Shown piece after piece: positions 12,603 through 51,774 of a DNA stretch of 64,000 nucleotides. Under the pieces are notes generated by a model that was given only the letters and a program-made list of their open reading frames with translations, had not been told where the DNA came from and did no database searches. This DNA comes from Yuukianura sp. NJ FZ-2021 (taxonomy: Eukaryota). Position 1 is the first letter of the stretch. Each line of letters opens with the position of its first letter. The DNA lies in assembly GCA_046563655.1 (NCBI GenBank), contig CM102285.1, positions 9,548,001-9,612,000 on the forward strand, read 5' to 3'. The translations under genes were made by a program, and so were the position numbers.

Positions 12603-15600
12603 ATGGCATCAGCGTTTCAAAAAAGACCTCTTCCATATCATTTTCCAAATAGAGTTCAACAAAGTTTCATTTCCTGTGTTCAGTTGTGCTTCACTTGCAC
12701 AAAAATAAGAGCGCTTCAGGATTGTACATCAGTTGTTCTGGAATTTCAAAATTTACCCAACAACTTCGATACGAAATCTAATATTTTACAGGTCATTTGC
12801 CAACTACTTAGAGTTCAATGGGTGTCAGTGGAATCTCTTCAACTGGATGATGGAAACCTACCATTTTGTCCATCCTGTCTTAAAGCCATCACAGAAATCA
12901 TCATCCTCAGGGAAAAATTGTTTCAAATTGAAACAGAAATTAGAGAAAAACTCAGAAAACTGGAGGCGTCTGTGGCTGAAACTTTTGAAAACGATGTGAT
13001 GGAAAAGACTCCAGGGCTCGATTAAGTACGATGACCTTAGAATTATGTTTCAAAAACAAGTGCTGGAGGGTGAGTAAAGGTCAATCACATCATATCAGAT
13101 CAAGTTATTAAAACTTCATTATTAATCAAAATTGTTCTTATAGAGTACTTGAATAAGGAACTACTTCAAGAAAAAATCGCGGAGATGAACCTAACTTCGG
13201 ATGCTTTCATAGCGGAATCAATTCCATCGTTGGTTCAATTTCATTTCGAAAAGAACGTGTTTTCGGTTAATGACAAAAAGCCGTCTTCGGAGGTCAAACC
13301 CATTGACTTTCCAGTCATAATGAGTGATGCATCAACTGATACCACGGATTTAGACATGGCTGACGAAAATTTAATGACATTCGCCTCCAAAGTTGAATTT
13401 GTAGATGAAGATGATGAAATGCCTCCAGTGCTTGAAGCAGAAGGGACTTGTGCAATTATTCAACTAACGGCTTCGACTGAGGAAAACTTTACGCTTATTC
13501 CTGTATGTCACGAAACAAGCGTAAGCGACGATAGTGATTACGGCTCTCCGAGGTAAAACGTTTTCAACAATTACATTATCTCATGATAATTTTCAGTTGA
13601 AAAAGGCTTGCTGACTAAGTTAATTGAAGGGAATGCTAGTCTATCTCAACTCATATATTCTAGGCTTGTTTTTCGAAAATTGAAAACTCTTCTAAGAATT
13701 GAAATTCGAAAACTTAAAAGATTTCGGTGAAAAAGGCTTTTGGTCTGCAGGATTCGTGATTTTGGTTTTTTTTTTTCAGCAAAAAGTCAAGAAGCGACAT
13801 AATTTCTAGCGCACTTTCTCCGCTCGAAAAGAATGAAAAAGAAAGAAAAGCTGCCGTTTCTTTTCCAACAAGGAAGAAATTCGTTAGTACTGTGAAAACA
13901 AAACTGAAAAACAAAAATTCAATTTCCAAAGTCAAACTCAGTTCGCCCAACGCATGTTCAGTGGCCCCGCGTCTGAAAAATTTTAAACCAAATAATATTT
14001 CTGGTAGTAGTTTGAAACGCCAAAACCCTCTGGGTAAGTATTCAAACCATTCCTATTCAACATACCAAAAAAATTTATCTCCCAAAATAAAATATAAGCC
14101 TATCGACTTCCTAGACCAGACGTTGCTTACTTTCAAAAATGCAAAATTTCGAAATTTCAAACCGGAGTAAACGAAATAAAGGGAGATTAAAACCCAAATT
14201 TCAAACAACTTCAGAAAATAATGAAAACTAAAAATACTGAATTTTTGTTAGCTTCAGGCTTTGACGAGGACGTTGCCGCTGACGAGGACGATGGTTCGGA
14301 TTGGGAGCTGGACGAGAAAGGTGATTCGGCAGCATCCGAGTCCAGATCAAGTGACAGTGATACTGATAAATCCGAATCCGATGGTGATGCTATAAATGAA
14401 GAGCCGGAAGTCAAACTCGAGGAATCGGAAAATTCAGTGGCAGAACTTTGCAGAAAGCACACTTTCAAGCCAAAGCATTCCCTTCGCCCTACGTCCAAAC
14501 ATGAAAAAAATGAACGAACATTTGTTAATGTTGTTCAAGAGGAAGCAACATTTACGGGAAAAGACAAAACAGTTTGGAAAACTATAGAACCCAACCAGAA
14601 GAGACAGACAAGAGCTTATGAAGTTCTCAGAGAGAAAGGCGGCTTGTTGGGCCCAGCGAAGGACAGCACACTGACTCCAACTCAAATTTTTAAATTGATG
14701 TTCCCACCGTCCATCGTAGAAACCATTGTTAAACACACTACGCATTGTTAAACGCTTACGCTACGCATGTATATAAAGCGAATCCAAAGACGAACCCAGC
14801 GGGTATCGTGATAAAATGGTCACCTATTACGTTGGAGGAAATGTATGGCTACATTGGAATCCTCCTCTATTTGGGAGCTGAGAAGCGGTAAACAAAACAA
14901 CGCTTATGGGCGCCAACTTACGTTATGTGACTGAAATTTTTTTTTTAGATTTTTAGGAACCGAAGAATCCAACCAACTATTTTGGGAACTTATTTAGGAG
15001 CAATGTTTTTAGTATTGTACTTGTATTTTGTTGTTAATTATGTTTCAGCAATACACCGCTACGGCTCGTGTGGACATCGGACGAACGGTATTCCGTCCCC
15101 ACTGTAGTAGCCACAATGAGCAGGCAAAGATTTTATTCAATTCACGGTTTTCTAAGGTTCGATGACAAAGTTGCCCGCATGTCATCAACACCGGAAATGG
15201 AAGTAGAAGAAGACGAGAGTTCCAATTCCAAATTCTGTTATATTTCTGAAGTATTTGAGCCATTTGTGGAAAACATGCAGAAATACTTGCGTCCATACGA
15301 CACTCTCGTTGTGGATGAAATTCTGGTCAAGTTTAGGGGAAGTGCCAAATTCCGAGTTTACATGAAATCCAAGCCAGGAAAGTATGACCAGCATGGCTAA
15401 ATTACTCTAGTGTGCGAATTATTAAAATGATTTAATACGCATTTGCTTTAAGGTTTGGAATGAAGTTATGGGCTGTATGTGACGTTGAAACTGGATACGT
15501 TTTGAAGGTTGACCTCTATAAAGGGAAAGTTGGCGACAAAGTGGAGCGGGAGCATGGGAAGAAAGTGGTTTTGAATTTGGTAAAGAAGTACTTTGGTTCT

Positions 15601-16654
15601 GGACGTGGAGTGACGATGGACAACTTCTTTACGTCCAAATCCCTCGGTGAAGAACTGATTAAGCAGAAGATGTCGATGCTTGGAACGCTTAATCGTAATC
15701 GAATGGATGTCATTCCGCAGTTTGTGGATCCTAAAGGAAGGGAACTCTTGTCTTCAGTATTTGCTTTCCATGGAGACTTTACAATGGTAAACTTTCTTTC
15801 CATACTTTCACCAAACTTATTGAGTTCAATTTCAAAACACATAGGACAATTTCCAATTTCATCAAATAATTGTGCATCGTATGTAAATTTTTAGGTTTCA
15901 TACGTTCCAAAGAAGAACAGATCCGTGTTGCTGTTGTCAACTCAGCATCATTCCGCGGAAATTGATTCGCAGCGTCCGTTTAAACCTAGGATGATCCTAG
16001 ACTACAACATGACAAAGTCAGGAATAGACACCGCAGACTTTATGATTGCGAACTTGTCTTGTCAGCGGGTAACTGCAAGGTAAACCTTCCTGTTCCACAT
16101 GGAAAGTAGGAAAAGTAGGAAATTCAACTTTCATCATTTTCAGATGGCCGGTGAAAATTTTTCAAGCACTTTTGGACATTGCTGCTCTCAACGCATACGT
16201 CATCTACAAAATACACAAAAGCTCCTCGGCTGACTTTCGTCGCACTAGTCGCAGAATGTTTGTGAGGAGTCTTTCGGAGGGACTCATGGAACCTCTAATT
16301 TCAACAAGATTTAAAAGAATGCCTCAGACAACAAGCTACCTTGACAGAATCCTTGAAAAACTTGGCTACAGTAAAGTTGAAGATGAAACACTGGAAAGCC
16401 GAATAGCAAACGCCCTTGAAACTGACAAACCCAAAGGCCTGCCGCTAGCAAGAGGACGCTGTACATTTTGTCGCAAATGGGGAAGTGGAACGACACACTC
16501 AAGGACAAGATGCACTTCATGCCAGAAGTTTGTTTGTGCTAAATGTGGTACAAAAATTAACCATTGTCCAAGTCCAAAATGTGCATACATCCGAGTACCG
16601 CCACCGCCACCGCCACCTAAAAAAAGCCTTCTGTCGAGTTTCAACTCATTATAG
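12603..16654 (+). pseudogene. ZAD-like domain-piggyBac transposase fusion, copy 1 (frameshifted)
   Basis: Same 8-exon layout as the other copies: CFTC...LPFCPSC, then VVDEIL, TMDNFFTS, KSGIDTAD and a Cys-rich tail. A ~5-nt deletion near 13013 gives a stop at 13023-13025, and an 11-nt insertion near 14740 gives a stop at 14749-14751. Confidence 0.8.
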
Positions 16655-17501
16655 AGTTCTTACCTTGTAAAAGTTTACTACGTATGGTTTGAATTCACTC
16701 TAAAAAAAAGAGAACGAGAACTATTATAATCTTTTAGTTATGTCGCTAGTCGTGATTTTCTGCAAAACTTATTGTTAGATCAGGTTTTTTTTAAGACAAT
16801 TAGAATTGATGTGAATGTAAAGCTCTCATGGGTTGAGAACTTTCACTTTGTTTGGTCCTGTAACTTCTTGTGCAATACTATTTTTGTTATACATAAAAAT
16901 AAAAGTTATGTAATGCGTAGGAAATACTGATTCTCTATTTGTAATTAAAAAGTTTTCTAAATTGTTTGAATTTATAGGAATTTCCCTTCAAATTGATTTG
17001 CCGAAGGTATTCATCAAAGTTTTAAAATTCGAGAAATTGTTTTGCAAATTCAAAACAGCGGCATGATGTAGTATGTTACAGAATGCGTTTTGCTTTTAGA
17101 ACTTATTTGTTCGTGATTAACTTTAACAATCTAATCCATTCTTCCTTTTATTTTTAAAGCCTTCATTTTAAGTTTTTATAAGTTGATAGTAAGAGTAAGA
17201 CCTAAGACGAGCGCACTTAGTAGATAAGTGCGTTTACATCGAAAGAAGTAGGGTCTTGGTGATACACGCAGTGCTTCACGCATTGAAGCCACGCACGAAC
17301 CAAGCCGAGTCATCGAAAATATACGAAACCAAAAGAAAAATAGAGTTGTAAAACGCCAAGGACAAAGGGTAGTACGTAGGGGAAACATCATAAACTTATA
17401 GCATACTAGCATCTTGTTAAACGAGAAACATAAGAGGAAATCCGATTTTCATAAACTTTTTAGTTTACTAAATTAGGTGAATAATATAACAATTTATTTA
17501 A

Positions 17502-17601
17502 NNNNNNNNNNNNNNNNNNNNNNNNNNNNNNNNNNNNNNNNNNNNNNNNNNNNNNNNNNNNNNNNNNNNNNNNNNNNNNNNNNNNNNNNNNNNNNNNNNN
17601 N
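17502..17601. other. Assembly gap (100 N)
   Basis: Run of 100 N, a fixed-size scaffolding gap. Confidence 0.99.
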
Positions 17602-20600
17602 CAGGCTCCTCGGTGGGGCTTACCTTAGACTGCGTCTGTATCCCTAATCGAATGACTTGTTCCGAGGTCATGGGCTCTCCAGTCTTGGGATTGACGAAGC
17701 AGCCCTTCGTTAGATCATACCATCCTAATCGAATGGCATCCAGAAGTGTAAGCTCAGTTCCAGTCTTTGGATCAACGAGGCCACAAGTACCCAGTAACTT
17801 CTGAACAATTCCTGAGTCCAGAACGTAGCCCTGCTCCGCTGCCTCTGTGAGGCTCAGACGACGATTTGTCTTCGGATCAACGAATTCTCCCGTCTTAATG
17901 TCAATGAGTCCGCAACCAATAGCTTGAGCAAGGGTTAGTTTCTCTCGCGTTAGTGGATCAATTAGTAAAGGAACTAGAATTGCAGTTTCCGTTGAGATTC
18001 CTTCTTCCGGTTTTCGGGCTGAGCGGATTTGTGAGAAATGCAGTTTCGGTGTAATTGGAGAACCGACGAGCTCTCCGTTACCGTTCGGCTCTGCATTTCC
18101 GTTCGTATCTCCATTTTTGAGGTGAGTAATTGACCGCTTCTTGGGAGCTGGAGCTGAATTTAGTGTAATTTCGACCGAGGTTCGCTGCATAACGTTATTG
18201 TCAATGGTATCCTCATCCCTAAACAAAAAAAAATCAAATGCATCACGCATGTGTTGAAAATTACTTTCGATGCTCGAATTGTATACTTACATAGGCGTTA
18301 GATCCCGTGATGCTGAGCGATAAGTTCGTAATGGACTAGGTGCAGGTACTTTGGAGATGGAGAACTGAAAACGGAAGCCAAATCAAAATCAATACTGAAA
18401 CTTAGACTTATAAAGCTGACTAGAATCTAAAAACAATAAAAGTGTCTAAACGTATCCTTACATCTGTGGACGGTTCCTCTTGTTTGATCGCAGTAGACAA
18501 TTGTTGGAGTCTGTGAAACAAACTGTCAACCAGAACTTGGTACTTGAGATTGAGGAGATCCAAATTTTTCTGAATCGTTTCAGGGGCTGACTCCAACCTG
18601 GGCTTCTTGACTAGACTTCCCTCTAAAGCAGGATGATAAGGTTCCAAACTTGAACGGAATTCATCCAATGTCGTGTCATAAGTCTGTTAATTGTGTTAAA
18701 AGTTAGATTTTACTTTCTTTTTAATCTTAGCTTATAAGCACATTAATAATACTTTGAAATAGTAGAAGCAGTGAAAGCACGAATTGATCAGCGTCATAGA
18801 AAAAGAATCAGAAGAGACGTTTCTTATCAAAAACCTCTAGGTTTCCGTAAGAAACGTTGTGCACAAGTACTACTGTTTAGTTGCGATCTGCGCGCCCAGT
18901 CACCCAAGATGGTTTAAATTCTGGTAGAAAATTATTTGTGTAACTTCAAATTAGTTAACGTTAGATGTTTCAATGAAATATTGAGTGTTAACATTTTAGG
19001 AACAAAAAAATTAGCTTCGAATTGAAAAGTATAAGTTACCATTGACGAACGGGAGAATTCAGTAGAAAGGAATTCAAAATAATTTCAATTCTATCAAAAT
19101 TGGAAGTAAAAATCTCTCCCAACCTAAGCATTCCAGAAACTTTTGACGCAATACGAACAACACCAAACAGCACAAAACGCTAACACAACGGACATGTACG
19201 AACGCTGATTTCGTTTCAACTTGGACAAAACCATCAGTGCACTTCACAAGGCATCAACATCCCACAGCAAATTACAAAAAGAAAAACAAAGAACAAATAA
19301 GAATCTTACCTTAGCTTCCTTTGCCAATCTAGCACCCATTGTATTCACTTGCTCAATTGTAATCTTCTCTTCTATCACACTATTGTAAAGCGTCTGCAAA
19401 AAATAATTTCAATTCTTAGTTAGTTGTGAAGTTAACATTAAAAAACTTACAGTAAAGATTAAAAAACGTAAAGTTTAGCTTTACCATGTGAGGTTGAATT
19501 TTGGTTTTAGCTCGTCCACTTTCCATCAACGGAAGCGCTTTTGTCTTTGTATCAATTGTGTCCAACCAGTTCATCTCCTTTTGATATGAACTGTTGTAGT
19601 GAGATGCCAGTTCAGAAGTTTGTTCAACTGCTCGAATTCTAAAAATCAAACAAAATCATCCGCTGAAGTAAATTCATTGTTCAATTGCTTTTAAAAGTGG
19701 AACCTCCGCCCCGGAATCACACAATTAACAAGAAAAATAAACTAATCGAAGCTCAACCACAAATTTTACCGATCAGCGATTTGGGAAGTTGCATTTGACC
19801 ACCGGGTTGTCGCTCGATGAACTTCGTCTTCAAGTTTCTCCACGTCGGGATGTCGTTTTTGAGATCCCCGAGACTTTTCAACCACACTCCGAACGCTCTT
19901 CGTTTCCTCGACCAATTCCTCAACAATGTGTTGATTAATTTGCGAATTATTTTGTAGATTGAACAAATCTTCAGAAACCTGCGGAAGAAGTTAGTACAAC
20001 AATCAATAAGTTTTTTTTTGAAAAAGCTGCAGTATTGGTTTTCCATACCTTTCGGATTTCGTTTTCTTCGGTGGGTAAATTTTCGTATGAAGCCAGCTTC
20101 ATCTCAAACTTGGAAACCATGGCCGTAGTTTCTTCCAGATTGTTCAAAACTACCTCAACGACTTTGATCCGTTCGACGTAGAGGTGAGAGAGATTCCAAA
20201 CTCGTTCCCAACTTTCCACAACTTTGTCCATCTTGGCTTGAAGTGGAGCTGACTTCTGTGGAATACTTGAGTAAGTTTTTTGTACTGTTTGAATTCGGGA
20301 CTCAAAAGTTTCCAACTTGGACTCAAATTCTCTGTGTTCAAGGATCATTCGATCAAGGCCATCGAGATCACGAGGGAGAGCAGCGTTTACGCGACTCGTC
20401 AAGTTGCGTTCAGCGTCTTCCAAATCAGTTTGCAACGATTGTACTTGAGAGGTAAAGGCTTTGGTCGTAGTCTTTGATTCTGTAAAACAAAAACAAAATT
20501 ATTAAAAACCAATTTCTAAATAAACGACATCTTCCTAGCAAATCTAATAGCAGTAAATTGTTCATCTTCACTGACTTTCTGCATCTAATGCTTCCTTTTC

Positions 20601-21634
20601 GAATTGATCAAAGAGACGGTTGACTTCTTCGATTTCACGACGCAGCCTTCTCAATGCTGGGTCGTTTGGATCGCCTTCTTGAATCAATTTCTCGGCGTCT
20701 TCATTCAGAGCCTTCCTAATTGCATTTCTCTGCTCGGTGCCCATAGCGAGGAATTGACTCAAATCCCAACTCTTCACAACTTTGATGGTAGCAAAGATCA
20801 TATTTTGTCGCATTTTCAGTTGCTTCTTCTGCCAAAGCGTCACACATCGGTCGTATTGCTTTCGAATCCGATCCGCGGCATCGATTGCCTCTTTATCTGG
20901 CGGTGGAATGAGAAAGCACACGCCTGGAACCATCCCTTCCAAGCCTGAGGAGTTTCGTACTCTCCAACGAACACGTTGACTGTTGTCCAGCAAAACACAG
21001 CGCTCGTCCTTGGCAATGATCATTTGCTGCTGTAAAATCAGATAAGTTCAGGTTAATCAAAACAGTCAACCTCATAAATCCAGTTTCAAAGAATATAACA
21101 AGTACAACTTACATTGTTTTGTCGGTAGCTGCAAATTGCTGTCACTGTAAGTGGACGAGATACATTTGTTTTTCGTTGTTTCAGAGGAATAATTTCCCCA
21201 CTTTCGTTACTGATCGCTTGCACAAATTCTCCAAATCTAGTCAGTTCATTGCGCAGTTCCTGCATCTCTTTCAGCAAAATCTCGCCTTCATCAAGACTAA
21301 AATCAGCTTGGCTGAAAATGGAATTGAGAAGTTCCTCTTGTCTAAAAAAAAAATGAAATGTATTTACAAACTGCCATTTGCAAAATATCATGTGGTTGCC
21401 GTAAACAAGGGCTGTTCCATAGTTTCCACAAAGGGAAAGGTATGTACCTTGCGATGCTTTGTTCACACTCCCGAACATTAGAGAAATATTGCTGGTAAGT
21501 AGCCACATATTTGAGATGCGTTTCGAGACACAGCGTAAGTTGTAGGAGCCATGCCCACTGCGTCTGCATGGAGGACATGTAGGTTTCGATGCATTTGGAA
21601 GCCGGGTGATGTTGAAGAACTAGAGACTCTCCAC
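17602..21634 (-). CDS. shot: Internal fragment of a spectraplakin (short stop/dystonin/MACF1-like): plakin spectrin repeats, SH3 and plectin repeats
   Basis: HHPASKCIETYMSSMQTQWAWLLQL (plakin domain); IIPLKQRK...AICSYRQ...CVLLDNSQRVRWRV...VPGVCFLIPPPD (plakin SH3); plectin repeats LIDPLTREKLTLAQAI, FVDPKTNRRLSLTEA and LVDPKTGTELTLLDAI. Truncated by gaps at both ends. Confidence 0.88.
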
Positions 21635-21734
21635 NNNNNNNNNNNNNNNNNNNNNNNNNNNNNNNNNNNNNNNNNNNNNNNNNNNNNNNNNNNNNNNNNN
21701 NNNNNNNNNNNNNNNNNNNNNNNNNNNNNNNNNN
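21635..21734. other. Assembly gap (100 N)
   Basis: Run of 100 N. Confidence 0.99.
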
Positions 21735-24700
21735 CATTGGAAAATAACTTTTCCATTGGAAAATAACTTTTCCATTGGAAAATAACTTTTCCATTGGAAA
21801 ATAACTTTTCCATTGGAAAATAACTTTTCCATTGGAAAATAACTTTTCCATTGGAAAATAACTTTTCCATTGGAAAATAACTTTTCCATTGGAAAATAAC
21901 TTTTCCATTGGAAAATAACTTTTCCATTGGAAAATAACTTTTCCATTGGAAAATAACTTTTCCATTGGAAAATAACTTTTCCATTGGAAAATAACTTTTC
22001 CATTGGAAAATAACTTTTCCATTGGAAAATAACTTTTCCATTGGAAAATAACTTTTCCATTGGAAAATAACTTTTCCATTGGAAAATAACTTTTCCATTG
22101 GAAAATAACTTTTCCATTGGAAAATAACTTTTCCATTGGAAAATAACTTTTCCATTGGAAAATAACTTTTCCATTGGAAAATAACTTTTCCATTGGAAAA
22201 TAACTTTTCCATTGGAAAATAACTTTTCCATTGGAAAATAACTTTTCCATTGGAAAATAACTTTTCCATTGGAAAATAACTTTTCCATTGGAAAATAACT
22301 TTTCCATTGGAAAATAACTTTTCCATTGGAAAATAACTTTTCCATTGGAAAATAACTTTTCCATTGGAAAATAACTTTTCCATTGGAAAATAACTTTTCC
22401 ATTGGAAAATAACTTTTCCATTGGAAAATAACTTTTCCATTGGAAAATAACTTTTCCATTGGAAAATAACTTTTCCATTGGAAAATAACTTTTCCATTGG
22501 AAAATAACTTTTCCATTGGAAAATAACTTTTCCATTGGAAAATAACTTTTCCATTGGAAAATAACTTTTCCATTGGAAAATAACTTTTCCATTGGAAAAT
22601 AACTTTTCCATTGGAAAATAACTTTTCCATTGGAAAATAACTTTTCCATTGGAAAATAACTTTTCCATTGGAAAATAACTTTTCCATTGGAAAATAACTT
22701 TTCCATTGGAAAATAACTTTTCCATTGGAAAATAACTTTTCCATTGGAAAATAACTTTTCCATTGGAAAATAACTTTTCCATTGGAAAATAACTTTTCCA
22801 TTGGAAAATAACTTTTCCATTGGAAAATAACTTTTCCATTGGAAAATAACTTTTCCATTGGAAAATAACTTTTCCATTGGAAAATAACTTTTCCATTGGA
22901 AAATAACTTTTCCATTGGAAAATAACTTTTCCATTGGAAAATAACTTTTCCATTGGAAAATAACTTTTCCATTGGAAAATAACTTTTCCATTGGAAAATA
23001 ACTTTTCCATTGGAAAATAACTTTTCCATTGGAAAATAACTTTTCCATTGGAAAATAACTTTTCCATTGGAAAATAACTTTTCCATTGGAAAATAACTTT
23101 TCCATTGGAAAATAACTTTTCCATTGGAAAATAACTTTTCCATTGGAAAATAACTTTTCCATTGGAAAATAACTTTTCCATTGGAAAATAACTTTTCCAT
23201 TGGAAAATAACTTTTCCATTGGAAAATAACTTTTCCATTGGAAAATAACTTTTCCATTGGAAAATAACTTTTCCATTGGAAAATAACTTTTCCATTGGAA
23301 AATAACTTTTCCATTGGAAAATAACTTTTCCATTGGAAAATAACTTTTCCATTGGAAAATAACTTTTCCATTGGAAAATAACTTTTCCATTGGAAAATAA
23401 CTTTTCCATTGGAAAATAACTTTTCCATTGGAAAATAACTTTTCCATTGGAAAATAACTTTTCCATTGGAAAATAACTTTTCCATTGGAAAATAACTTTT
23501 CCATTGGAAAATAACTTTTCCATTGGAAAATAACTTTTCCATTGGAAAATAACTTTTCCATTGGAAAATAACTTTTCCATTGGAAAATAACTTTTCCATT
23601 GGAAAATAACTTTTCCATTGGAAAATAACTTTTCCATTGGAAAATAACTTTTCCATTGGAAAATAACTTTTCCATTGGAAAATAACTTTTCCATTGGAAA
23701 ATAACTTTTCCATTCGAAAATAACTTTTCCATTGGAAAACAAATTTTCCAGTGGAAAATAAATTTTACAGTGGAGAATAACTTTTCCATTGGAAAATAAA
23801 TTTTCCATTGGAAAATAACTTTTCCATTGGAAAATAACTTTTCCATTGGAAAATAACTTTTCCATTGGAAAATAACTTTTCCATTGGAAAATAACTTTTC
23901 CATTGGAAAATAACTTTTCCATTGGAAAATAACTTTTCCATTGGAAAATAACTTTTCCATTGGAAAATAACTTTTCCATTGGAAAATAACTTTTCCATTG
24001 GAAAATAACTTTTCCATTGGAAAATAACTTTTCCATTGGAAAATAACTTTTCCATTGGAAAATAACTTTTCCATTGGAAAATAACTTTTCCATTGGAAAA
24101 TAACTTTTCCATTGGAAAATAACTTTTCCATTGGAAAATAACTTTTCCATTGGAAAATAACTTTTCCATTGGAAAATAACTTTTCCATTGGAAAATAACT
24201 TTTCCATTGGAAAATAACTTTTCCATTGGAAAATAACTTTTCCATTGGAAAATAACTTTTCCATTGGAAAATAACTTTTCCATTGGAAAATAACTTTTCC
24301 ATTGGAAAATAACTTTTCCATTGGAAAATAAATTTTCCAGTGGAAAATAACTTTTCCATTGGAAAATAAATTTTCCAGTGGAAAATAACTTTTCCATTGG
24401 AAAATAACTTTTCCATTGGAAAATAACTTTTCCATTGGAAAATAACTTTTCCATTGGAAAATAACTTTTCCATTGGAAAATAACTTTTCCATTGGAAAAT
24501 AACTTTTCCATTGGAAAATAACTTTTCCATTGGAAAATAACTTTTCCATTGGAAAATAACTTTTCCATTGGAAAATAACTTTTCCATTGGAAAATAACTT
24601 TTCCATTGGAAAATAACTTTTCCATTGGAAAATAAATTTTCCATTGGAAAATAACTTTTCCATTGGAAAATAACTTTTCCATTGGAAAATAACTTTTCCA

Positions 24701-26764: not shown

Positions 26765-26864
26765 NNNNNNNNNNNNNNNNNNNNNNNNNNNNNNNNNNNN
26801 NNNNNNNNNNNNNNNNNNNNNNNNNNNNNNNNNNNNNNNNNNNNNNNNNNNNNNNNNNNNNNNN
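26765..26864. other. Assembly gap (100 N)
   Basis: Run of 100 N. Confidence 0.99.
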
Positions 26865-26935
26865 TTTTCATAAACTTTTTAGTTTATTAAGTTAGATTAT
26901 AATATAGCAATTTATTTAACTATATAATTTACAAA

Positions 26936-40500: not shown

Positions 40501-41609
40501 CTTGGAACGCTGGATCATAGACGAAAGGATGTCATTTCCCAGTTTTTAGATCGCAGTGGGCGAGAAGATTTCTCGTCAGTATTTGCTTTCCAAAATGATT
40601 TTACAATGGTAATTCCCATTCTTTTTCTTTTCTAAAAATGACTGGGTTGTCTTGAAAAACAAAACGAACCGTTACACATTTTTTTAGGTTTCTTACGCTC
40701 CGAGGAAGCGCCGTGCAGTGTTACTGCTGTCGACGCAGCATCATTCGGCGGAGATTAATTCTCAGGACACATACAAACCGAAGATGATGCTGGATTACAA
40801 TAGTACTATAGGAGGCGTGGATACTGCGGCTCATAATATAGGAAAGTATTCGTGTCAGAAGGGCAGCAAAAGGTAACTTTTAGCAATTTTTGACCTTAAA
40901 ATAACACGTCTAGCAACATTACGAAAATTCTTATAGGTGGACAGTGAAAGTGCTCCAAGCTTTTCTGGATATTGCAGCTTTCAATGCCTATGCTATTCAC
41001 AAACTACAAAAAAGTTTGTCGGAAGATACCGCAACTGTTCTCGGGCGCAAGAGGTTCCTGGTAAGCCTTTCGAAAGGGCTGATGAAAGATGGAATTTATA
41101 AACTACTGCAGAGACCGAGACCACTATTTAGTCTGAATTCCCCTACAGCTTACCGTCGCAACATTACAGTTTTTGATGAACTTGCAGTGAAGAAAATGCA
41201 ATGCAGTTTGAATGCAGTTTCTCCTGCTATGCGCAAAGTATTTTTGAGGAACTTTTCGGAAGGACTGTTGCAACCTTCTACTGCAACAAAAGTTCAAAGA
41301 CCCCCGGAGTTAACGTATTTTCACAACATACTTAGGAAACTTGGTTACGAAGTTCCAGAGCAGGAGACGATGGAAAGTCGTACACCTAACGCGATGATAG
41401 GAGTTGGTGAAGTGAAACCGAGTAGGATAGTAGGGAGATGTCACATTTGCCCAAGGGGAAGAAAGGGGAGGTCCGCGAGCTCAACATGCCATGTATGCAA
41501 GAAATTCGTTTGTCTTCCGTGTAGTGTAAGACCTATCCATTGTCGTCGCCCAGAATGTACATTCGTACCGCCACCGCCGCCACGAGCAGAACCGCGGAAT
41601 AACCTTTGA
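37543..41609 (+). CDS. ZAD-like domain-piggyBac transposase fusion, copy 4 (intact ORF, first catalytic Asp replaced by Gly)
   Basis: 8 exons in frame. VLGEM replaces VVDEM (codon 40108-40110); MDKSF replaces MDNFF; GGVDTAA. The last exon is internally duplicated and the Cys-rich tail is kept. Confidence 0.85.
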
Positions 41610-42615
41610 CCTACTTTCAGCTTAAGAAAAAGTATTATCGTTATTTTGACACTTATTGTCTGCTAGGTAATTGAAATGTTTTAGGTGAACTATATATAAT
41701 TATGTTTCTTAATTATGCTTAAGTTGTTAAGATAAGAAATTTACTTTTCTACGAAGTGTTTCAGTTTGTCTGGTCTTTGTACTGCAAGTGTAATATTTTA
41801 ATAAAAATCGGAAGATATTTATGAAATTCTATTAAAGATCGTGAGATCGTGTTATTCTAGTTTTTTCTTTATGTAAAGAAGTCTCCTTCACCAATTATTT
41901 TTGGAAGGTTGGTTAAATTTCTTTAAATTAAATTCTTAAATTTAAAGTTAAAGGTTTTCTTTAGTTGTTAAATTTTTGCAACATCCGGCGCGTTCATGTA
42001 TTACCAAAGAAAAGAGCATCCTAGAGCTAAAGCAGGCCGATGCTTTCTTCTTTGATGTATTACGAAAACTTTTCTCTTTTCCGTGTTGTGTTAAGTTGAA
42101 ACGAAATTACAGAGTGAGACTGTATGAAAATTGCTGTTTGGTTTGTTTCAAAGCATTTAGGAACGAGAGAATCACTTACGCATCAACATCACATAAACGC
42201 ACGAGCAAAGCCGAATCCAATGTAAAAACGGAACGCAGCCCACTTATCAAATGGAGGGTACGCCAAGGACAGAGCATAGTATAATAGCAAAAAACTTTTC
42301 GCCAATTAAAGTTTCCCCGATTAACTTTTCGCCAATTAAATAAATAGTTTTGCTACTAATATCCCTCCATAAAAGTCTACATCCACAGGATACACTCAAA
42401 CATCACGCATCAACACAACGCACGAACAAACCCGAGTGAAAAAGAAAAACAGGGAAGTCAAGTCAAATTGAGGCCACGCCAAGGTTAGAGCCAAAGTATA
42501 CCAAAGGAAAATAAAATGTACCAAAGTGAACGAGACCGATAGAGCCACAAAACGAGTTTCAAAAATTTTCTCCATAGAATTTATAAATATTGAACCGAAT
42601 TATACAATTTATAAA

Positions 42616-45600
42616 ATGTCACTGCTTCATCAACGCAGGATTCCTTTTGCTACTCACAAGGTTCCACATGAAGCTATGGTTCCTCGTATTCAGTTGTGCT
42701 TCACTTGTACCAATCTAAAAGCACTACAAGGATGCACTTCAATTGTACTGGAATGCCAAGGTTTGGCTAGCAATCTGGAAACGAAATCAAGTATTCTGCA
42801 AGTAATTTGCCAATTACTAAGAGTTCAATGTGGGTCACTGGAATCGCTGATTCTGGAAGATGGAAACCTTCCATTTTGTCCAACTTGTCTCAAGGTCATC
42901 TCAGAAATCATCATCCTCCGGGAGAAATTATTTCAAATTGAAACCGAAATTAGAGAAAAACTAAGGAAGCTTGAATCGTCTGTGGCCAAAAGTTATAATG
43001 CTTACCGAGGTTATGAAAAGAACACGACAGAGGAGGATTCGGCATATGATGACTTCAGAATTATGTTTCAAGGACAAGTGATGGAAGGTGGGCAAAAGTT
43101 TAAACCGTTTCGTGTATTGAATGTTTTCAAAATTCAATGACTTGCATAAAACTATTTTTTCAGAACACATAAATAAGAAACTGCTTCATCAAAAAATCAT
43201 TGAGCTGAATGAGGATCCGAACGCTTTTGTTACTGAATCTGTTCCTTCGATGGTTCAATTTCATCTGGAGAAAAATATATTTTCGATTGTTGATAGGAAG
43301 CCATCTTTGAAAGTCGAAGCAATTGACTACGTGTGGCAAATTTTACGCACTGATGCATCAACTGATACAAGAGACTTTGAAATTCCTGAAGAGAAAGTTG
43401 AAGTTGCAGGAAGCGCTGAATTCAGCCTTTGTAGTGCTGAAATGCCTCCAGTCCTTGAGGCAGAAGCGTTGGATGGTTACGAAAACTTTAGTCTCGTCCC
43501 TGTGGATCAGGAATTGAATATTAGCGATGACAGTGATTATGGCTCTCCGAGGTATACCAAAAAATCAAAAGATTTTTCTGAAAAATACAATTTTTTTTTC
43601 ATTTTTTATTGTTTCTGTTAGCAAAAAATCCAAAACTGAGAAAATCGTGAGTGGAAATACTGAACCGGCGAAAAATGAACAACCAGCGAAACCTGTCGTT
43701 CCGACTCGAAAAAAGGTTAACACTAAAGTGGAACAGAAAAAACTGGCGAAATCTCGACGCCTGATTTTTGGTGCGCCTAAACCCTTAAAGATAGTCAAGC
43801 GTCCATTGTTAGTTAATAATAATCGCAAACGTGGCACTTCAAAACAACAAGAAATGATTGGTAAGTAAAAAAGCATTTAAGTCCTCACAAGATTCAAAGT
43901 TGAAGATATTTAGTATAACTACAAAGTATTGTCAAATACTGTGAAGAAGAGTATCGACGATTCGTCGGAAAACTGCGACTTGAACTCGTTGTTATTTGGA
44001 TTTTCTAAATTGTTTACCGGATTTCTTAAAAACAATTTTGTTGTAGACTGTGAAGAAGAAGAAGAAGAAGAGGAAGAAGAAGAAGCAGTAGAAGCAGAAG
44101 AAGAAGATGACGAAGTTGAAGGAAATGACGCTGATGAAGGCGATCCGTCTGATTGGATACCGAAGAAGAAGTACGGGGAATCCGATTCATCTGATTCTCC
44201 AAGTAGTGACAGCGATCGTGACGAAGCAGATGCAGACGACGGGGACAGAGACGGAGCTGCGAAAGTGCAAAAGGAGCCCGAGGATTCCGCAGTTTCAACT
44301 TCGGAACATTGCCAAAAGCACCAATTCAAACCGAAGCATTCTCGTCACCCGCCCCGCAAAAAATATCTTATTGAACCAACTTTTGTCAAAGTCGTTCAAG
44401 AAGAAGAAACGTTTAAGGCCAAGGACAAAAGTATCTGGACAACCAAGGAACCTGACCAGGACAGGCAGACAAAGGATTACGAAATTCTGAGAGAGAAAGG
44501 CGGCTTGATGGGCCCTGCGGCCGACACAACGCTAACTCCAACGCAGATATTTAAACTAATGTTCCCGCCGGATATTGTGGAAACCATTGTGAAATACACC
44601 AATGCCTACGCTACACATATGCTCAAAATGACTCCAAATAAAACAAAGGGGGCGGACGCGACTACGTTTAATCCTCTTACCGTGGAAGAAATGTACGCCT
44701 ACATCGGAATTTTGCTTTTCTTAGGAGCTGAGAAGAAGCGGTAAAGCGTACCAAACATTCCTTTGAATTCTTAAATGCTGATCCTCTTTTTTTTAAATTG
44801 TAATACTTTTTTTTGGAATTCAGCCTTTAAACACAATGCTTTTGCTGTTTACTTTCAGGACCTCGCCTATTCGTGAGGTTTGGACAACAGACGAAAGATA
44901 TATGATTCCTGTCGTGGCAGCCACAATGAGTATAGGAAGATTCTGTTCAATTACCAAATTTCTCAGGTTTGACGATAAAGTAGCACGCATGACCGCAACA
45001 GACAAACGCGAAACTGAAGAAGAAGAAGAAGATTCTAAATTCTGCTATATTTCCGAAGTATTTAAACCATTTGTAGAAAATATGCAAAACCACTTGAGCC
45101 CCTATGATACACTTGTCGTCGATGAAATGCTGGTCAAATTTCGGGGCAGTGCCAAATTTCGAGTTTATATGAAATCCAAACCTGGAAAGTAAGTATACCA
45201 ACTGATTCTTTTTAGTTTTCATATAACGTATTTAGCTTAATGGTGAAATGTTGACTTTAAGGTACGGGATTAAGTTTTGGGCTGTTTGTGACGTCGAGAC
45301 TGGCTACATCTTGAAAATTGCTGTGTATGAAGGGAAAGTTGGCGGTGTAGTGGAGCGGGAGCATGGAAAGAAAGTCGTTCTGAATATGGTCCAGAAGTAT
45401 TTCGGCTCTGGACGTGGAGTGACGATGGACAACTTCTTCACGTCCAAAGCCCTTGGCGAAGAATTGATGAAGCGTAATATGTCGATGCTTGGAACGCTCA
45501 ACCACAATCGAATGGATGCCATTCCAAAGCTTACCGATCCCAAAGGACGGGAAATCATGTCTTCAGTATTTGCATTCCAAGGAGATTTCACGATGGTAAG

Positions 45601-46440
45601 CGTATGTAAACACACGCTATATACGTTTGGTTACTCGCATTGTTCTTTATTGCAGGTTTCTTACGTTCCAAAGAAGAACAGAGCTGTTCTGCTCCTGTCA
45701 ACCCTTCATCACTCCGCTGAAATTAGTTCGCAACATCGAAGTAAACCAAAAATGATTCTGGACTACAATATGAGCAAGGGTGGTGTCGATACTGCGGACC
45801 AAATGATAGGTGCCTATACATGTCAGAGGACAACTATGAGGTAAACTGCGATGTCAATGCAAAATTGAATCCAATCCGGCAAGACTTACAAGCAGCTTCA
45901 AAGCTTGATTTCATGATGTTTAGGTGGCCAATGAAGGTATTTCAAGCTCTTCTGGACATTGCAGCTTTCAATGCATATGCCGTGTACAAAATGCACTGCG
46001 GTTCGACTGCTACGCCTTCTACTTTGCGCAAAGCGTTTTTGAGGAATCTTTCTGAAGGATTGATGGAACCCGTAATTGTAGCGAGGCTGGAAAGGGCTCC
46101 ATGGAAGTCATTGGAATATTCCAGGGTACTGGAGAAACTTGGATACGCTTTGGAGGAAGAAGAAAAAGAGACGATAGAAAGTCGTGTAGCAAAGGCCTTA
46201 GCGGGAAAAAGCGTTGAAGTGAATAAAAGAATGCCGAATGGGAAATTGAAAGCAGGTCGCTGTAAGTTTTGTCCACCCAAAAAACGAACGATAGCGACGA
46301 TAACATGTGACTCGTGCGGAAAGTTTGTTTGTAGTAAAACGTGTTTAATACGAATTTGTCCGACTCCAGAATGCGCTTATGTAAAAGGAAAAGTAGCGTC
46401 AGCTCGGAGGAATCTTCAATCAGCGTTCAGCCGAAAATAA
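42616..46440 (+). CDS. ZAD-like domain-piggyBac transposase fusion, copy 5 (intact, DDD triad intact)
   Basis: 8 exons in frame. CFTC...LPFCPTC; VVDEML; TMDNFFTS; YNMSKGGVDTAD; CKFC...CDSCGKFVCSKTC...CPTPEC. Confidence 0.88.
44052..44110 (+). repeat. GAA-rich triplet run encoding a poly-Glu tract in copy 5
   Basis: gaagaagaagaagaagaagaggaagaagaagaagca... in frame in exon 4. Confidence 0.85.
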
Positions 46441-46844: not shown

Positions 46845-46995
46845 AAAAGTGAAATGACCAAAAGTGAAAAGAACAGAAAAAAGACCAGAAAAGGAAAATG
46901 AAACACAGGTCTTTCCTAAGGTCTTTCGAATTCTAGCTTTTCACTTTTTATTAGTCATTTAATTTTCGCCCAATTTTTTTGGCCATTTCACCTAC
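46845..46995. repeat. Short degenerate fold-back (MITE-like remnant)
   Basis: Nested inverted pairs GTGAAATGACCAAAA / TTTTGGCCATTTCAC, AAAAGTGAAAAG / CTTTTCACTTTT and AAAGACC / GGTCTTT. Confidence 0.45.
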
Positions 46996-47612
46996 TACGA
47001 AGCTCTTGCCTGCATTTGCACTTAGGTTTTCGAAATATTAATTTTTCAAATTCAAAATGTTTGGTAGTGAGTGACGGAATTTGAACTTTTGATTTTGAAA
47101 AAAAAACATGAAAATAATGTTGTTCTTTTTTCGTTTGAAAACCAACCGAGATGTATTTCTTCTTGAATTTAATAAGGCCAGGGTTTTATAGTGTGAGCGA
47201 ATTAAAATTTCTCTTTTCAGTTTTGACTTTGAGTAACTGGGATGGAAATTACAAAGTAAGACTGTACATGTTTGTTTTGTTCCAAAGCATTTGGAAAGTA
47301 GTACTTACAGGATCATAACGACCACAAAATAGTACACCACACGCAATGAACACGCATCAACACAACGCACGAACCAATCCGAGTCAAAATGAAAAACAAA
47401 ACAGCCAAGCCAAATCGAGGCCAAGCCAAGGACAGACCCTTGCAGTAGTATCTACTATACCAAATATGAAAAGTAAAATACAAAAAAAAAAATCTATTTC
47501 ACAGTAAACTAGACTCAGAAGGGCTACAGAACTTAAATTTTTTCTAGTTTCTTGGACTTATAATTTTATTAAAACGTTTATAAATATTAAACCGAATTAT
47601 ACAATTTATAAA

Positions 47613-50600
47613 ATGTCTTTATTCCGTCAAACTAGAATTAATTTTGCTGCTCCGAAAGTTCCAAATGGTGCAGAACCAATTAGAGTACCTCTTGTTCAGT
47701 TGTGCTTCACTTGTGTCAATATAAAAGCACTGCAGGGATGTACTTCGGTGGTTCTGGAATGCCAAGGTTTGGCCAGCAACATCGAAACGAAATCAAGTAT
47801 TCTGCAAGTGATCTGTCAATTACTACGAGTTCAGGGGAGATCACTGGAATCGCTCATTCTGGAAGATGAGAACCTTCCATTTTGTCCATGTTGTCTCAAG
47901 GTCATCTCAGAAATAATCATCCTCAGGGAGAAATTATTTCAAATTGAAACAGAAATTAGAGAGAAACTTAGAACACTGGAAGCGTCGGTGGCTGAAAGCT
48001 TCGAAACTTACGGAGACGATGTGAAGAAGAAGACGCCAGAAGAGGGGTCAATTGAGTACGATGACCTCAGAGTTATGTTTCAAACACAAGTCATGGAAGG
48101 TTTGTAAAAGTCAAATGAGGCTATAGCATGTAAATATACCTAACATTTTGCAAATTACTGTTATACTATTACTTGTTTCTTTAGAACACACCAATAAGGA
48201 ACTACTACGGCAAAAAATTCTGCAATTGAATCAGAATCCGAATACTTTTGCTGCTGAATCCATGCCTTCGATGGTTCAATTTCAACTGGAGAAAAACGTA
48301 TTTTCGATTGCTGGCCGGAAACCATCTCTGAAGGTCGAGGCAATTGACTGTGATTTCCAAATTCGTCACGCTGATGCATCAACTGATACAAAAGACTTGA
48401 AAATTCCTGAAGAGAGAACTCGTATCCCAGGACGCGCTGATTTGAGGCTTTATGATGCTGAAATGCTTCCAGTCCTTGCCTCAAGAGCTTCGGACGCTGC
48501 GGATCTCGTTCCTGTAAATCAGGGATTTTCTGCACAATTGAAAAATCAGAATCCAGAAATAACTTGCATTCCAAGTCCGGAAAAGAAAACTAAAGCTGTA
48601 CCGCAGAAATTTGTAAAATCCCAATTCCGGTATTTGCCACAACCCTCCAAACTCATCAAGCGTCCATCGTTGCCTAATCCTAATCCAGTGCCTTGTACTG
48701 CAAAACGACAAGAACCAATTAACCCCTTAACGGTTATTAACCTTCCACCCTTAACGGCAATTAACATTCCACCCTTAACGGTAATTAACCTTCCACCCTT
48801 AACGGCAATTAACCTTCCGCCGTTGCTTACTACATTCAACGATGCTCAAACACCTCCAGTCATTGATTTGGCAAGGTCGGACGTTGATGAAGACTTTAGT
48901 CTTGTTCCTGTGGATCAGGGATTAAATATTAGTGACGACAGTGACTATGGATCTCCGAGGTATACTACCAAAAATTTTATATTCAAAAGATTTCACATTA
49001 AAATATTAGTAAATTTTCACTTTTTTCTGTTTCTTTTAGCAAGAAATCCAAAGCTGAGAACGTGATGATTACAAATACTGTACTGAAAAAAAATCCACAA
49101 CCAAGGACTGTCATTCCGCGTGTAAAGAAAGTTCTCACTAGATTGGAACCGAATAATTTGGCGAAATCTCGACTCCGGAATTATATTGCGCCTAAGCCCT
49201 TAAAGCTAATCAAGCGTCCATTGTTTTCTAATCCCAAACCTACTACTTCAAAACAACAAGAAACAGTTGGTACGTTGTCAATTTAATATTTAATTCTTCT
49301 CAAAATTTCTCAAAAAGTTCAACCTAAATACTAAGAGACTTTGGAAATATGTGTTGTATTTGGATTTCCTTGGATTGGTTACTGACAATTCTTAAATAAT
49401 TTCGGCTATAGATTCCGAAGAAGAATTGGAAGATGATGATGGCGATGGGTCTGATTGGATTCAGAAGGACGGAGACAGCGACTCATCCGATTCCACATCA
49501 AGTGACAATGATTGTGATGAACAAGAACCAAATGGCGATGATGGCGTCAAAGACGGAGCTGCGGAATTGGAAGACAGCGCAGAGGTTTCAATTTCAGAAA
49601 TTTGCAAAACACAAGATTTCAAAACCATGGCTAAACCAACCTCCAAAGATGACCCAAATGAGCCGACTTTTGTCAAAGTCATTCAAAAAGAGGCGACGTT
49701 TAAGGCTAGGGACAACACACTATGGACATCCCAGGAACCCAACCACATCAGACAGACAAGGGCTTATGAAGTTCTACGACAAAAAGGGGGCTTGGTGGGC
49801 CCTGCAACGGACAGTACTATGACTCCAGCGGAGCTGTTTAAACTGATGTTTCCAGCCACCATCTTGGAAACTATTGTTAAACACACCAACGCACACGCCA
49901 TTCGAACGCGGAATAACCAAAAACCGCATTCAGCGTTGAGTGAATTGAATCCGCTTACCGTGACTGAAATGTATGCCTACATCGGTATTCTGCTGTTTCT
50001 GGGAACTGAAAAGAAAAGGTAAAGTGTTTTGTTGAATTTTGCTTATGGAAGCCACTAAAGCAGTTAGTTTCCAATTCATACTTTCAACGAGGGTGCCTGT
50101 TCTTGTTTATCTTCAGTAAGTCAGGAGAAGCGTGGGGAAAGGATGAAAGATATGCGATTCCCATTGTAGCGGCAACGATGAATAGAAACAGGTTTTGTTC
50201 AATTCAAAGCTATATCAAGTTCCACGATGATGCAGCACCAATGACCGTAACAAACAAAAACGAAACCAAGGAAGCAGAAGAAGCCAATTTCTGCTACATT
50301 TCCGAAGTATTTGAGCCATTTGTCGAAAATATGCAAAATCACTTGTGTCCTTATGAGACTCTAGTGGTGGATAAGATGCTCGTCAAATTTCAAGGAAAAA
50401 GCAAATTTCGCGTGAATATGAAATCTAAGTAAGTCGGCGGACCCGATTATTTCCGTTTGGTTTAAGCGGAAGTGCACATCTTCCGAGTTGTGCACTCGAA
50501 ATATCTTTCGCTACTTACATATGGCGTTTACAACGGTTTATTTTTATGTTTTTTTTTGGTTCTAAAAGGTATGGACTCAGGTTATGGGTGCTTTGTGATG

Positions 50601-51774
50601 CTGAAACTGGCTACATTTTGAAAATTGCTCTCGACGAGCGGAACGCTAGCGCTCAAGCTAGAAAGGACCTTGGGAAGAAAGTCGTTTTGAATTTGGTTAA
50701 GAAGTATTTTGGTTCTGGACGGGGAGTGACGATACACAATTTGTACGTGTCGAAACTCTTGGGAGAGGAACTCATGAAGAACAGGATGTCGATGCTTGGA
50801 ACGCTCAAACACAAGCAAATCGATGTCATTCGGAAGTTTGTGGATCTCCATGAAAGGGAACTCCAGAGTTCAGTATTTGCATTCCAAAGAGATTTCACAA
50901 TGGTAAGAAAATATGGCAATTTTCCCGCTGCATTTCAAAATATTCGCAGCGATTAGTGATAACTGATAGGTGGGTTGAAATCTTTAAACTCGTTTAGGTT
51001 TCGTACGTTCCTAAATGGAACAGAAAGAACAAATTAATTCTGCTCCTATCAACGCAACATCATTCCAGTGAGATCAGTTCTGAAGATGGGTACAAGCCAA
51101 AGATGGTTCTGGACTACAACATGACAACCCAAACTGCAAATATTGCAGATCGAACTATTCGTGCCCACACGTGTCAGAGGACAACTCTGAGGTAATTCTT
51201 CCGATTTTAGCACAGAATTGAATGTTATCCAGCAAATTCAAAGATTTGATTCTTGATTCGTAGGTGGTCAGTGAAATTGTTCCAAGCACTTTTGGACATT
51301 GCAGCTCTCAATGCATACACTATCTACAAAATGCACTGCAACTCTACTGCAGTTACCCCTACTTCCCGTAAAACGTTTTTGAGAAGCCTCTCAGAAGGAC
51401 TCATGGAACCTACACTTACGGTGCGGTTTGAGAAAGGTCCATCGCATACTGCATTCCCGCATCTTTGCAAATTGCTTGAGAAACTGGAATATGTTTATGA
51501 GGAAGAAGACACACTAGAAACTCGTGTACAAAACTTCCTGTCGGGAGAAATCCTTGAAAAGCCAAAAAGATTGAATGGACAGATCAGAGGTTTTCGTTGC
51601 ACCTTTTGTCCGAAAAGAAGAATGATAGCAACGATTAGGTGTAAATCGTGCCGAAAGTATGTTTGTAGAGCATGCCTAATAAGAATTTGTCCTACTCCAG
51701 AATGCTCCTATGTAATGACCACAGCTCTAGCTCGGGAGAATCCTCAAGCATCTTTCAACCTCAAAATGAAATAG
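47613..51774 (+). CDS. ZAD-like domain-piggyBac transposase fusion, copy 6 (intact ORF, second and third catalytic Asp lost)
   Basis: 8 exons in frame. VVDKML; VTIHNLY replaces TMDNFF (His codon 50735-50737); TQTANIAD replaces KGGVDTAD (Asn codon 51139-51141). Cys-rich tail kept. Confidence 0.85.
48718..48822 (+). repeat. 24-nt coding minisatellite (INLPPLTA/V repeats) in exon 2 of copy 6
   Basis: About four units of ATTAACCTTCCACCCTTAACGGCA/GTA. Confidence 0.9.

Follow-up and report, generated by a model that had tools for sequence, protein, structure and literature searches.

The DNA analyzed was a stretch of 64 kilobases (kb) from Yuukianura sp. NJ FZ-2021 (contig CM102285.1, positions 9,548,001 to 9,612,000), referred to here as the window and numbered from its first letter. 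It is eukaryotic DNA of ∼38% G+C and contains three scaffold gaps of 100 N. Its main content is a cluster of six paralogous genes, designated c1 to c6, in which a four-cysteine N-terminal domain is joined to a transposase-like core. The six start codons lie on the plus strand at positions 12603, 26936, 31972, 37543, 42616, and 47613, confirming the original prediction of six co-oriented paralogs. A tblastn search of the window with the spliced c5 protein matched c1 to c6 and detected no other copy or fragment. The order of the encoded parts was the same in every copy: an N-terminal CxxC...LPFCxxC domain with a helix, a linker, a basic region in exon 3, an acidic, serine-rich tract, a piggyBac-type core, and a tail rich in Cys and His.

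Introns were placed by GT...AG boundaries, a continuous reading frame, and agreement between paralogs. The predicted common structure of eight exons and seven introns was borne out in all six copies, with intron positions and phases (1, 2, 1, 2, 2, 0, and 2) identical throughout, and all 28 introns of c3 to c6 were of the GT-AG type, with lengths of 60 to 186 nucleotides (nt). Between copies, exons aligned at 55 to 79% identity versus 46 to 55% for introns, the latter being near noise. The spacing between the window copies, all arranged head to tail, was 0.9 to 1.8 kb. The c3-c4 spacer was unusually long, at 1.8 kb, and an AT-rich, self-complementary block of simple sequence was noted within it at positions 36880 to 37038.

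Uninterrupted spliced open reading frames (ORFs) were obtained for four of the six copies, all on the plus strand. The c3 gene (31972 to 35757) encodes 1037 amino acids (aa) in exons at 31972-32464, 32534-32906, 32981-33267, 33412-34045, 34209-34529, 34596-34929, 35014-35198, and 35271-35757. The c4 gene (37543 to 41609) encodes 1146 aa in exons at 37543-38032, 38117-38672, 38776-38987, 39079-39745, 39864-40181, 40269-40608, 40688-40872, and 40937-41609. For c5 (42616 to 46440), 1052 aa are encoded in exons at 42616-43087, 43164-43551, 43622-43860, 44047-44740, 44859-45188, 45262-45595, 45656-45840, and 45924-46440. For c6 (47613 to 51774), 1149 aa are encoded in exons at 47613-48099, 48185-48959, 49040-49269, 49412-50018, 50117-50428, 50569-50902, 50998-51191, and 51264-51774. 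Two of these exons showed internal repetition. Exon 8 of c4 contains an internal duplication of ∼50 to 60 residues after the catalytic core (local self-alignment score of 63 over 52 columns), and exon 2 of c6 is enlarged by an insertion of ∼130 residues, part of which is a Pro-rich peptide of the PLTxINLP type repeated in tandem.

The expectation of six genes held for paralogy but not for intactness, as c1 and c2 are both frameshifted. In c1 (plus strand, 12603 to 16654), a deletion of 5 nt near 13014 causes the frame to end in a stop at 13023-13025. Farther on, 11 inserted nt near 14740-14750 include an in-frame TAA; exons 5 to 8 are open. In c2 (plus strand, 26936 to 31091), the frame is shifted by +1 insertions near 27150 and 27164, in the part of the N-terminal domain that separates its two Cys pairs. 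The remaining exons of c2 are open, and its upstream region is interrupted by the N gap at 26765-26864. When exons 5 to 8 of c1 and c2 were compared with those of the other copies, the ratio of nonsynonymous to synonymous substitution rates (dN/dS) was 0.18 to 0.33. Because these downstream exons are still open and were historically constrained, the breaks look recent, although the frameshifts may alternatively be assembly errors.

Between c1 and the other five copies lie the three 100-N gaps, a 5-kb satellite of 19-bp units, and a fragment of a plakin gene on the opposite strand. The adjacency of c1 to c2-c6 therefore rests on scaffolding. The satellite (21735 to 26764) comprises 264.7 copies of its unit with 99% matches and has a 100-N gap on each side. 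The plakin/spectraplakin-type fragment (minus strand, 17602 to 21634; Plectin repeat, SH3_10, and spectrin repeat) stands alone between two N gaps, which would indicate either a misplaced contig or a cluster located inside a large intron.

The core was examined with the profile proposed in the original prediction, Pfam DDE_Tnp_1_7 (PF13843), which has a cut-off of 22.4 bits. In c1, exon 5 (65 bits; E value of 1e-17) and exon 6 (73.7 bits; E value of 2.2e-20) matched well above that cut-off, and exon 7 on its own reached 13.5 bits, below it. Exons 5 to 8 of c5 were collinear with chain 6x67 of the Trichoplusia ni (T. ni) piggyBac transposase, aligning to residues 202-288, 291-403, 404-462, and 465-585, respectively, and they also aligned, more weakly, to piggyBat. 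The c5 tail aligned to residues 550-585 of 6x67, and eight Cys/His ligands were present in the tail of all six copies. These sequence matches support assignment of the c1 to c6 core to the piggyBac transposase superfamily. Lys and Arg make up 16 to 29% of the region encoded by exon 3, and Asp and Glu make up 27 to 44% of the serine-rich region at the start of exon 4. The composition of these regions suggests that the acidic tract represents the piggyBac N-terminal region and the basic stretch a nuclear-localization signal.

Catalytic positions were numbered by alignment to 6x67, in which D268, D346, and D447 are the catalytic residues (D/D/D). Asp was present at all four of the D268, D346, D447, and D450 positions in c1, c2, c3, and c5. 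In c4, the first catalytic Asp, at the D268 position, is replaced by Gly, and Ala occupies the D450 position. The c6 copy has His in place of the second (D346) and Asn in place of the third (D447). The parts that had been described for every copy, namely the N-terminal domain, linker, acidic tract, piggyBac core, and tail, were recovered in all six, but the D/D/D set is lost in c4 and c6.

The proposal that dN/dS be compared among the copies was followed for the whole coding sequence. Each of the six comparisons between intact copies gave a value in the range of 0.26 to 0.35 (bootstrap 95% intervals, all inside 0.21 to 0.43) at dS values of 0.71 to 1.15, demonstrating purifying selection. The N-terminal domain gave the lowest ratio of seven regions (0.11 to 0.24). 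The two copies that have lost catalytic residues have long branches (0.71 and 0.47) versus ∼0.15 for the rest, yet their frames are open and their dN/dS values are ∼0.3. If the neighboring copies are the products of local duplication, their low dN/dS indicates that selection acted on the copies in place.

A decaying relic array, in which an old local amplification is drifting toward pseudogenes with no present function, would account for the frameshifts in two of the six copies, for the incomplete catalytic sets and long branches of two of the other four, and for the insertions and duplications in exons 2 and 8. Such drift is difficult to reconcile with dN/dS intervals that lie far below 1 in every pairwise comparison, with four long ORFs that have stayed open at a dS of ∼1, or with N-terminal domains that are 72 to 86% identical while the introns have been randomized. 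The architecture has also been kept in a second organism, described below. A relic array was therefore judged highly improbable.

Transposon ends and further copies were sought within the 64-kb window. No TTAA-CCC...GGG-TTAA ends had been noticed around any copy in the original prediction, and this was upheld. The sequence TTAACCC occurs at 2 sites in the 64 kb, compared with 8.9 expected; neither flanks a copy, and one of them, at 48719, lies inside exon 2 of c6. No flanking inverted repeat stood out around c3 to c6, the best candidate, at c5, scoring 39 versus 37 to 39 for mismatched pairs of flanks. That candidate, a 17-nt inverted repeat at 41906/46619 that can be extended to ∼36 nt, was rejected as a transposon end because the match extends both outwards and inwards from the TTAA, because it occurs at a single copy, and because mismatched flank pairs score equally.

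The upstream regions of c3 to c6 instead contained a 23-nt motif, found on the plus strand only, 212 to 262 nt before the ATG, with 0 matches expected by chance. It is exact in c5 (42404 to 42426, 212 nt before the ATG) and c6 (47351 to 47373, 262 nt) and has 3 mismatches to the c5/c6 form in both c3 (31749 to 31771, 223 nt) and c4 (37289 to 37311, 254 nt). From its sequence and position, the motif behaves like a common promoter element rather than a transposon end. It was not found in the loci of the second organism when up to 6 substitutions were allowed.

Relatives of the family were sought in protein and metagenome data. A profile search of 1.84 billion proteins returned 5 matches at an E value of ≤0.001, four of which are short, exon-1-like ORFs that end exactly at the exon-1 splice boundary. 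The fifth, P0005 (1673 aa; E value of 1.6e-4), is a repetitive Cys-rich protein and was dropped as spurious. Word-indexed protein searches for longer proteins, using exon 1 and part of the core, gave no match. A scan of metagenome contigs confirmed 6 loci among 299 pattern matches, on six contigs from one metagenome, showing that the family recurs in a second organism. In two of these loci, L001 and L004, a pair of copies is arranged head to tail: each contig covers the 3' part of a first copy and, 1.6 to 2 kb downstream, the beginning of a second. Their domain order and exon boundaries match those of the window copies, with one difference: intron 3 is missing in that lineage, so that a single exon, fused from exons 3 and 4, encodes both the basic and the acidic part and the genes have seven exons. 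The D/D/D set was present in all three second-organism cores examined. In a tree of the core, the six window copies and three second-organism copies separated with full support (100/100), and amplification was therefore either lineage specific or followed by homogenization.

The most distant relative, L006, differs in what follows the N-terminal domain. Its exon 1 domain is alike, its first intron has the same place and phase (phase 1), and its exon 2 opens with the common exon-2 motif (BLASTP E values of 1e-4 to L004 and 0.009 to c5). These parts are then followed by C2H2 zinc fingers, with Pfam zf-C2H2 matches at E values of 3.5e-4 and 7.5e-4, both under the cut-off, and no piggyBac match was obtained at this locus. 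An arrangement in which exons 1 and 2 are joined to C2H2 fingers is the one predicted if a transposase was captured into a ZAD-type zinc-finger gene. Just upstream of the ZAD-like/C2H2 gene on the same contig, a BRCT-domain coding exon was identified at 219-741 (BRCT_3; E value of 1.1e-15).

These data bear on whether c1 to c6 are genes or mobile elements. They could be autonomous, intron-bearing piggyBac-like transposons, now or recently mobile, to which the N-terminal zinc/helix domain is native and which lie close together by chance. The retention of D/D/D and of the Cys-rich tail in four of the six window copies and in 3/3 second-organism cores would suit such elements, as would the presence of multiple copies in both organisms, and active transposon lineages can themselves show purifying selection on the transposase when compared with one another. 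Set against these points, TTAA-flanked inverted repeats were not found around the window copies, every copy is closely spaced and head to tail in both organisms, and a dS of ∼1 between neighbors with a dN/dS of ∼0.3 implies selection after separation in place. In addition, the copies without catalytic residues keep open frames of >1100 aa, and seven conserved introns with a one-stranded upstream motif are gene-like features. Mobile elements of this kind were therefore considered quite unlikely. On this sequence evidence, c1 to c6 look like tandem duplicates under purifying selection, not transposon insertions, in agreement with the earlier proposal that the family expanded by tandem duplication rather than by transposition.

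The N-terminal domain is the best-conserved part of the protein, with 72 to 86% identity among copies over the modeled piece. In c5, this piece comprises residues 22-128 (plus strand, 42679 to 42999), and its equivalent lies in exon 1 of every copy. In an alignment of 13 sequences, the second Cys pair was invariant and the first was present in at least 90%, the four cysteines being the main conserved feature; in an alignment of 9 sequences, all four were invariant. AlphaFold modeling with the six paralogs only gave a mean predicted local distance difference test (pLDDT) value of 53, too poor for use. With a wider alignment that included the relatives, pLDDT rose to 84.4, with a predicted template modeling score of 0.68, and the model contained a long helix (residues 68-106) that starts at the second Cys pair.

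The domain had been proposed to be a ZAD, and this was not borne out by the Pfam profile zf-AD (PF07776), which was matched by none of the six window domains at an E value of ≤10. Among four relatives, only P0003 was matched, at 13.5 bits (E value of 0.088), under the cut-off of 28 bits, over positions 2-74 of the 75 in the profile. Sequence-profile searches of the PDB with alignments A1 and A3 and with protein P0003 returned rows at chance level and no ZAD, and Foldseek comparison of the model with the PDB gave nothing at an E value of ≤0.001. The failed Pfam match would be explained if ZADs are otherwise extremely divergent. In the excerpted part of PMC7913770, ZADs are described as homodimers that are held by a long amphipathic helix and have four invariant cysteines; Drosophila ZADs are described there as having little in common beyond those cysteines, with under 18% homology between the most divergent.

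Structural comparison of the model did point toward ZADs. Among 48,161 chains, crystal structures of ZADs accounted for 6 of the 20 best entries (ranks 1, 2, 5, 6, 10, and 20), those of Serendipity-delta, M1BP, Grauzone, Pita, CG2712, and ZNF276, with Z scores of 4.9 to 3.4. The top match (Z score of 4.9; root-mean-square deviation of 3.8) aligned 79 of 92 residues. When the 62 weak Foldseek matches were rescored, the M1BP ZAD again had a Z score of 4.9, and the next chain had 2.2. Of the 30 language-model neighbors of the domain in the Atlas, 19 were zf-AD clusters; the nearest unnamed clusters carry no family. These neighbors include clusters labeled Mollusca, whereas those of a flanking protease are labeled Arthropoda, so that the two comparisons point to different phyla. 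Taken together, the model comparisons suggest a likeness to the ZAD fold that is specific but weak, for which the absolute scores count for less than the fact that one small family was selected repeatedly.

An alternative is that the family is host maintained but its N-terminal module is not a ZAD, being an unrelated four-cysteine zinc knot with a coiled coil, either a module of the transposase lineage that was passed to the L006 C2H2 gene or an independent, lineage-specific domain. Besides the negative profile and Foldseek searches and the absence of a family for the nearest unnamed Atlas clusters, the spacing of the Cys pairs would agree with this, since the 56-residue spacer differs from that of described ZADs and, in the model, contains two helices beyond those of the ZAD shown in the excerpt of PMC7913770. 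The structural scores are also low, no chain reaching a Z score of 5, and values under 8 can reflect a common arrangement; in addition, long helices are readily predicted as dimers. An unrelated module is harder to square with the six ZAD places among the best 20, which cover nearly the whole domain, with the zf-AD clusters that make up most of the Atlas neighbors, or with the subthreshold alignment of P0003 to almost the full zf-AD profile. L006 also has a ZAD-type architecture of N-terminal domain, linker, and C2H2 fingers, and the limited likeness among Drosophila ZADs (PMC7913770, in part) lessens the force of the missing Pfam match. A non-ZAD module was judged unlikely.

Homodimer prediction for the domain gave a score of 0.46, well clear of its 3 controls (best value, 0.01). 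The runs agreed in at least 68% of contacts, with a partner pLDDT of at least 55, and the predicted interface consisted of antiparallel packing of the long helix. The mark used for calling a dimer was reached by 21/30 one-chain pairs and 0/23 single chains in a microbial benchmark. Among eukaryotic proteins, it was reached by 17/29 pairs, including only 1/7 of those without an older solved relative, and by 0/30 single chains. As ZAD dimers have already been solved, the positive prediction may reflect likeness or memory rather than binding.

Overall, it is probable, though well short of certain, that c1 to c6 are a host gene family that arose when a transposase was captured into a ZAD-like zinc-finger gene and was then amplified by tandem duplication. 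Under this interpretation, an ancestral gene encoding a ZAD-like domain and C2H2 fingers would have gained a piggyBac coding region, placed after the first two or three of its exons. Its product would have five parts: a four-cysteine zinc knot with an amphipathic helix, a disordered linker, a basic stretch, an acidic region, and a transposase core with a Cys-rich tail. The chimera would then have multiplied by local head-to-tail duplication, followed by birth-and-death evolution, with c3 and c5 keeping a complete catalytic set, c4 and c6 remaining constrained without all of the catalytic aspartates, and c1 and c2 having been broken recently. With respect to the original idea that a ZAD exon set captured a piggyBac transposase, the piggyBac core and the C2H2 fingers of L006 are in its favor, but zf-AD is unmatched, the fold likeness is weak, and the direction of capture, in which the zinc-finger gene took up the transposase, is inferred.

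Several points weigh against this interpretation. In addition to the missing zf-AD match, the chance-level PDB profiles, the low structural scores, and the extra helices, at least five different exon-1 sequences occur on separate contigs of the second organism, which would fit mobility as well as arrays, and no flank homology was found between the window and second-organism loci. The retained D/D/D sets in both organisms would also fit a still-active transposase. Two of the six copies are broken, the place of c1 in the cluster depends on scaffolding over N gaps, and the splicing and expression of c1 to c6 are predictions from sequence.

If the preferred reading, capture followed by tandem duplication, is correct, the transcripts would be expressed and spliced as modeled, and the proteins would enter the nucleus, probably by means of the basic stretch as a nuclear-localization signal. 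There they would pair through the N-terminal helix, the zinc knot and the long amphipathic helix serving as a dimerization module in which the four cysteines would bind zinc. In the excerpted part of PMC7913770, most tested ZAD pairs with above 51% homology heterodimerized. Because the N-terminal domains of the window copies are 72 to 86% identical, the paralogs probably pair with each other. DNA would be bound through the DNA-binding parts of the transposase. Copies that retain D/D/D may still be capable of cleavage, with the remaining copies perhaps serving as noncatalytic partners or regulators.

The closest parallel among known systems is PGBD1, in which a piggyBac transposase is joined by splicing to host exons for the N-terminal oligomerization domain of a zinc-finger gene family; a corresponding splicing pattern is predicted for the window genes. 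Transposon ends are absent in both (here, within the window), and both are under purifying selection, with a Ka/Ks of 0.43 reported for PGBD1 in the excerpt of PMC5381638 versus 0.26 to 0.35 for the window family. The range of 0.12 to 0.43 in the survey given there brackets the values obtained here. In contrast to the window genes with their ZAD-like domain, PGBD1 carries SCAN, is a single gene rather than a member of a six-gene tandem array, and has no intron within its transposase part (Table 1 of PMC5381638), which is split by four introns in the window genes. Unlike PGBD1, the window family also has some members that keep the catalytic residues and lies in an invertebrate-type host genome.

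A similar origin is proposed for CSB-PGBD3 and for the tetrapod fusions formed by transposase capture (KRAB/SCAN-transposase, e.g., KRABINER). The capture route described in parts of 10.1101/2020.05.07.082677 and PMC5381638 begins with a transposon in an intron, the ORF of which is spliced to upstream host exons. These are single vertebrate genes, several of them inside recognizable transposon remnants, whereas the window family shows tandem amplification and no remnant ends. PGBD5 is likewise an old, intron-containing piggyBac-derived gene, with 5 to 7 introns (Table 1 of PMC5381638), but that table lists neither an added host domain nor a Cys-rich tail for it. It is a single-copy chordate gene, and by tblastn it was not a close relative of the window copies.

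Paramecium PiggyMac and its five PiggyMac-like (PgmL) partners resemble the window family in being six domesticated piggyBac paralogs (PMC6143343, in part). In Paramecium, the genes are scattered, none has a ZAD-like head, and their function in programmed DNA elimination has been demonstrated, whereas any such function of the window family would be hypothetical. To our knowledge, the PgmL proteins are without catalytic residues, which in the window family are kept in some members only. The ZAD-C2H2 proteins (Grauzone, M1BP, Pita, Serendipity-delta, and CG2712 of arthropods and ZNF276 of vertebrates) share with the window family an N-terminal four-cysteine knot with a long helix and lineage-specific tandem expansion. 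They also include the best structural neighbors of the model, and the L006 relative has their C2H2 fingers. They differ from the window domains, for which there is no Pfam-level match, in having a shorter Cys-pair spacer without the extra helices, and in having a zinc-finger array; no C2H2 array follows the N-terminal domain in the window genes, and the transposase stands in its place.

Fusions of host domains with transposases (SCAN, KRAB, and CSB) are a recognized source of new vertebrate regulators. No ZAD-piggyBac fusion, and no ZAD-based invertebrate counterpart of these fusions, was found in the literature by title or abstract, and none of the eight domesticated piggyBac genes surveyed has a ZAD in the excerpt of PMC5381638. 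If the interpretation is correct, a transposase has also taken the place of the DNA-binding array in a rapidly evolving zinc-finger gene outside vertebrates. The fusion would then have been amplified in tandem, and its members would have diverged, some keeping the catalytic residues and others not. The four intact paralogs within 20 kb provide a compact test bed for the questions that this opens: what a transposase gains from a pairing domain, whether the noncatalytic paralogs are partners or inhibitors, and whether the proteins police piggyBac-like elements or cut host DNA.

A more far-reaching possibility, which must be regarded as very unlikely, is that the cluster encodes a multisubunit, ZAD-paired, piggyBac-derived nuclease, in which heterodimers of competent c3 or c5 with dead c4 or c6 would cut the DNA of an animal in a programmed, sequence-directed manner. 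If so, it might act in developmental DNA elimination or in the excision of transposon relics, and an equivalent of the PiggyMac/PiggyMac-like machinery would have arisen independently in animals.

The surroundings of the cluster contain several other genes. Upstream of c1, the minus strand carries an array of trypsin-like serine protease genes (113 to 10000), with a Pfam Trypsin match at 7121-7609; a 321-aa ORF within it (4927 to 5892) is similar to Atlas clusters of arthropod "gd-like" proteases. No tRNA was found by tRNA scan. A perfect palindrome, its 26-nt arms separated by 1 nt, was found at 52907-52959, ∼1.1 kb beyond the end of c6 and at the start of an ORF (52886 to 53410); neither this ORF nor the gene at 52886-54323 gave a Pfam match. 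Farther downstream, the minus strand encodes an HBS1-like GTPase (GTP_EFTU, GTP-eEF1A_C, and HBS1_N) and a mitochondrial carrier, at 55297-59218 and 60263-61218, which are possible synteny anchors.

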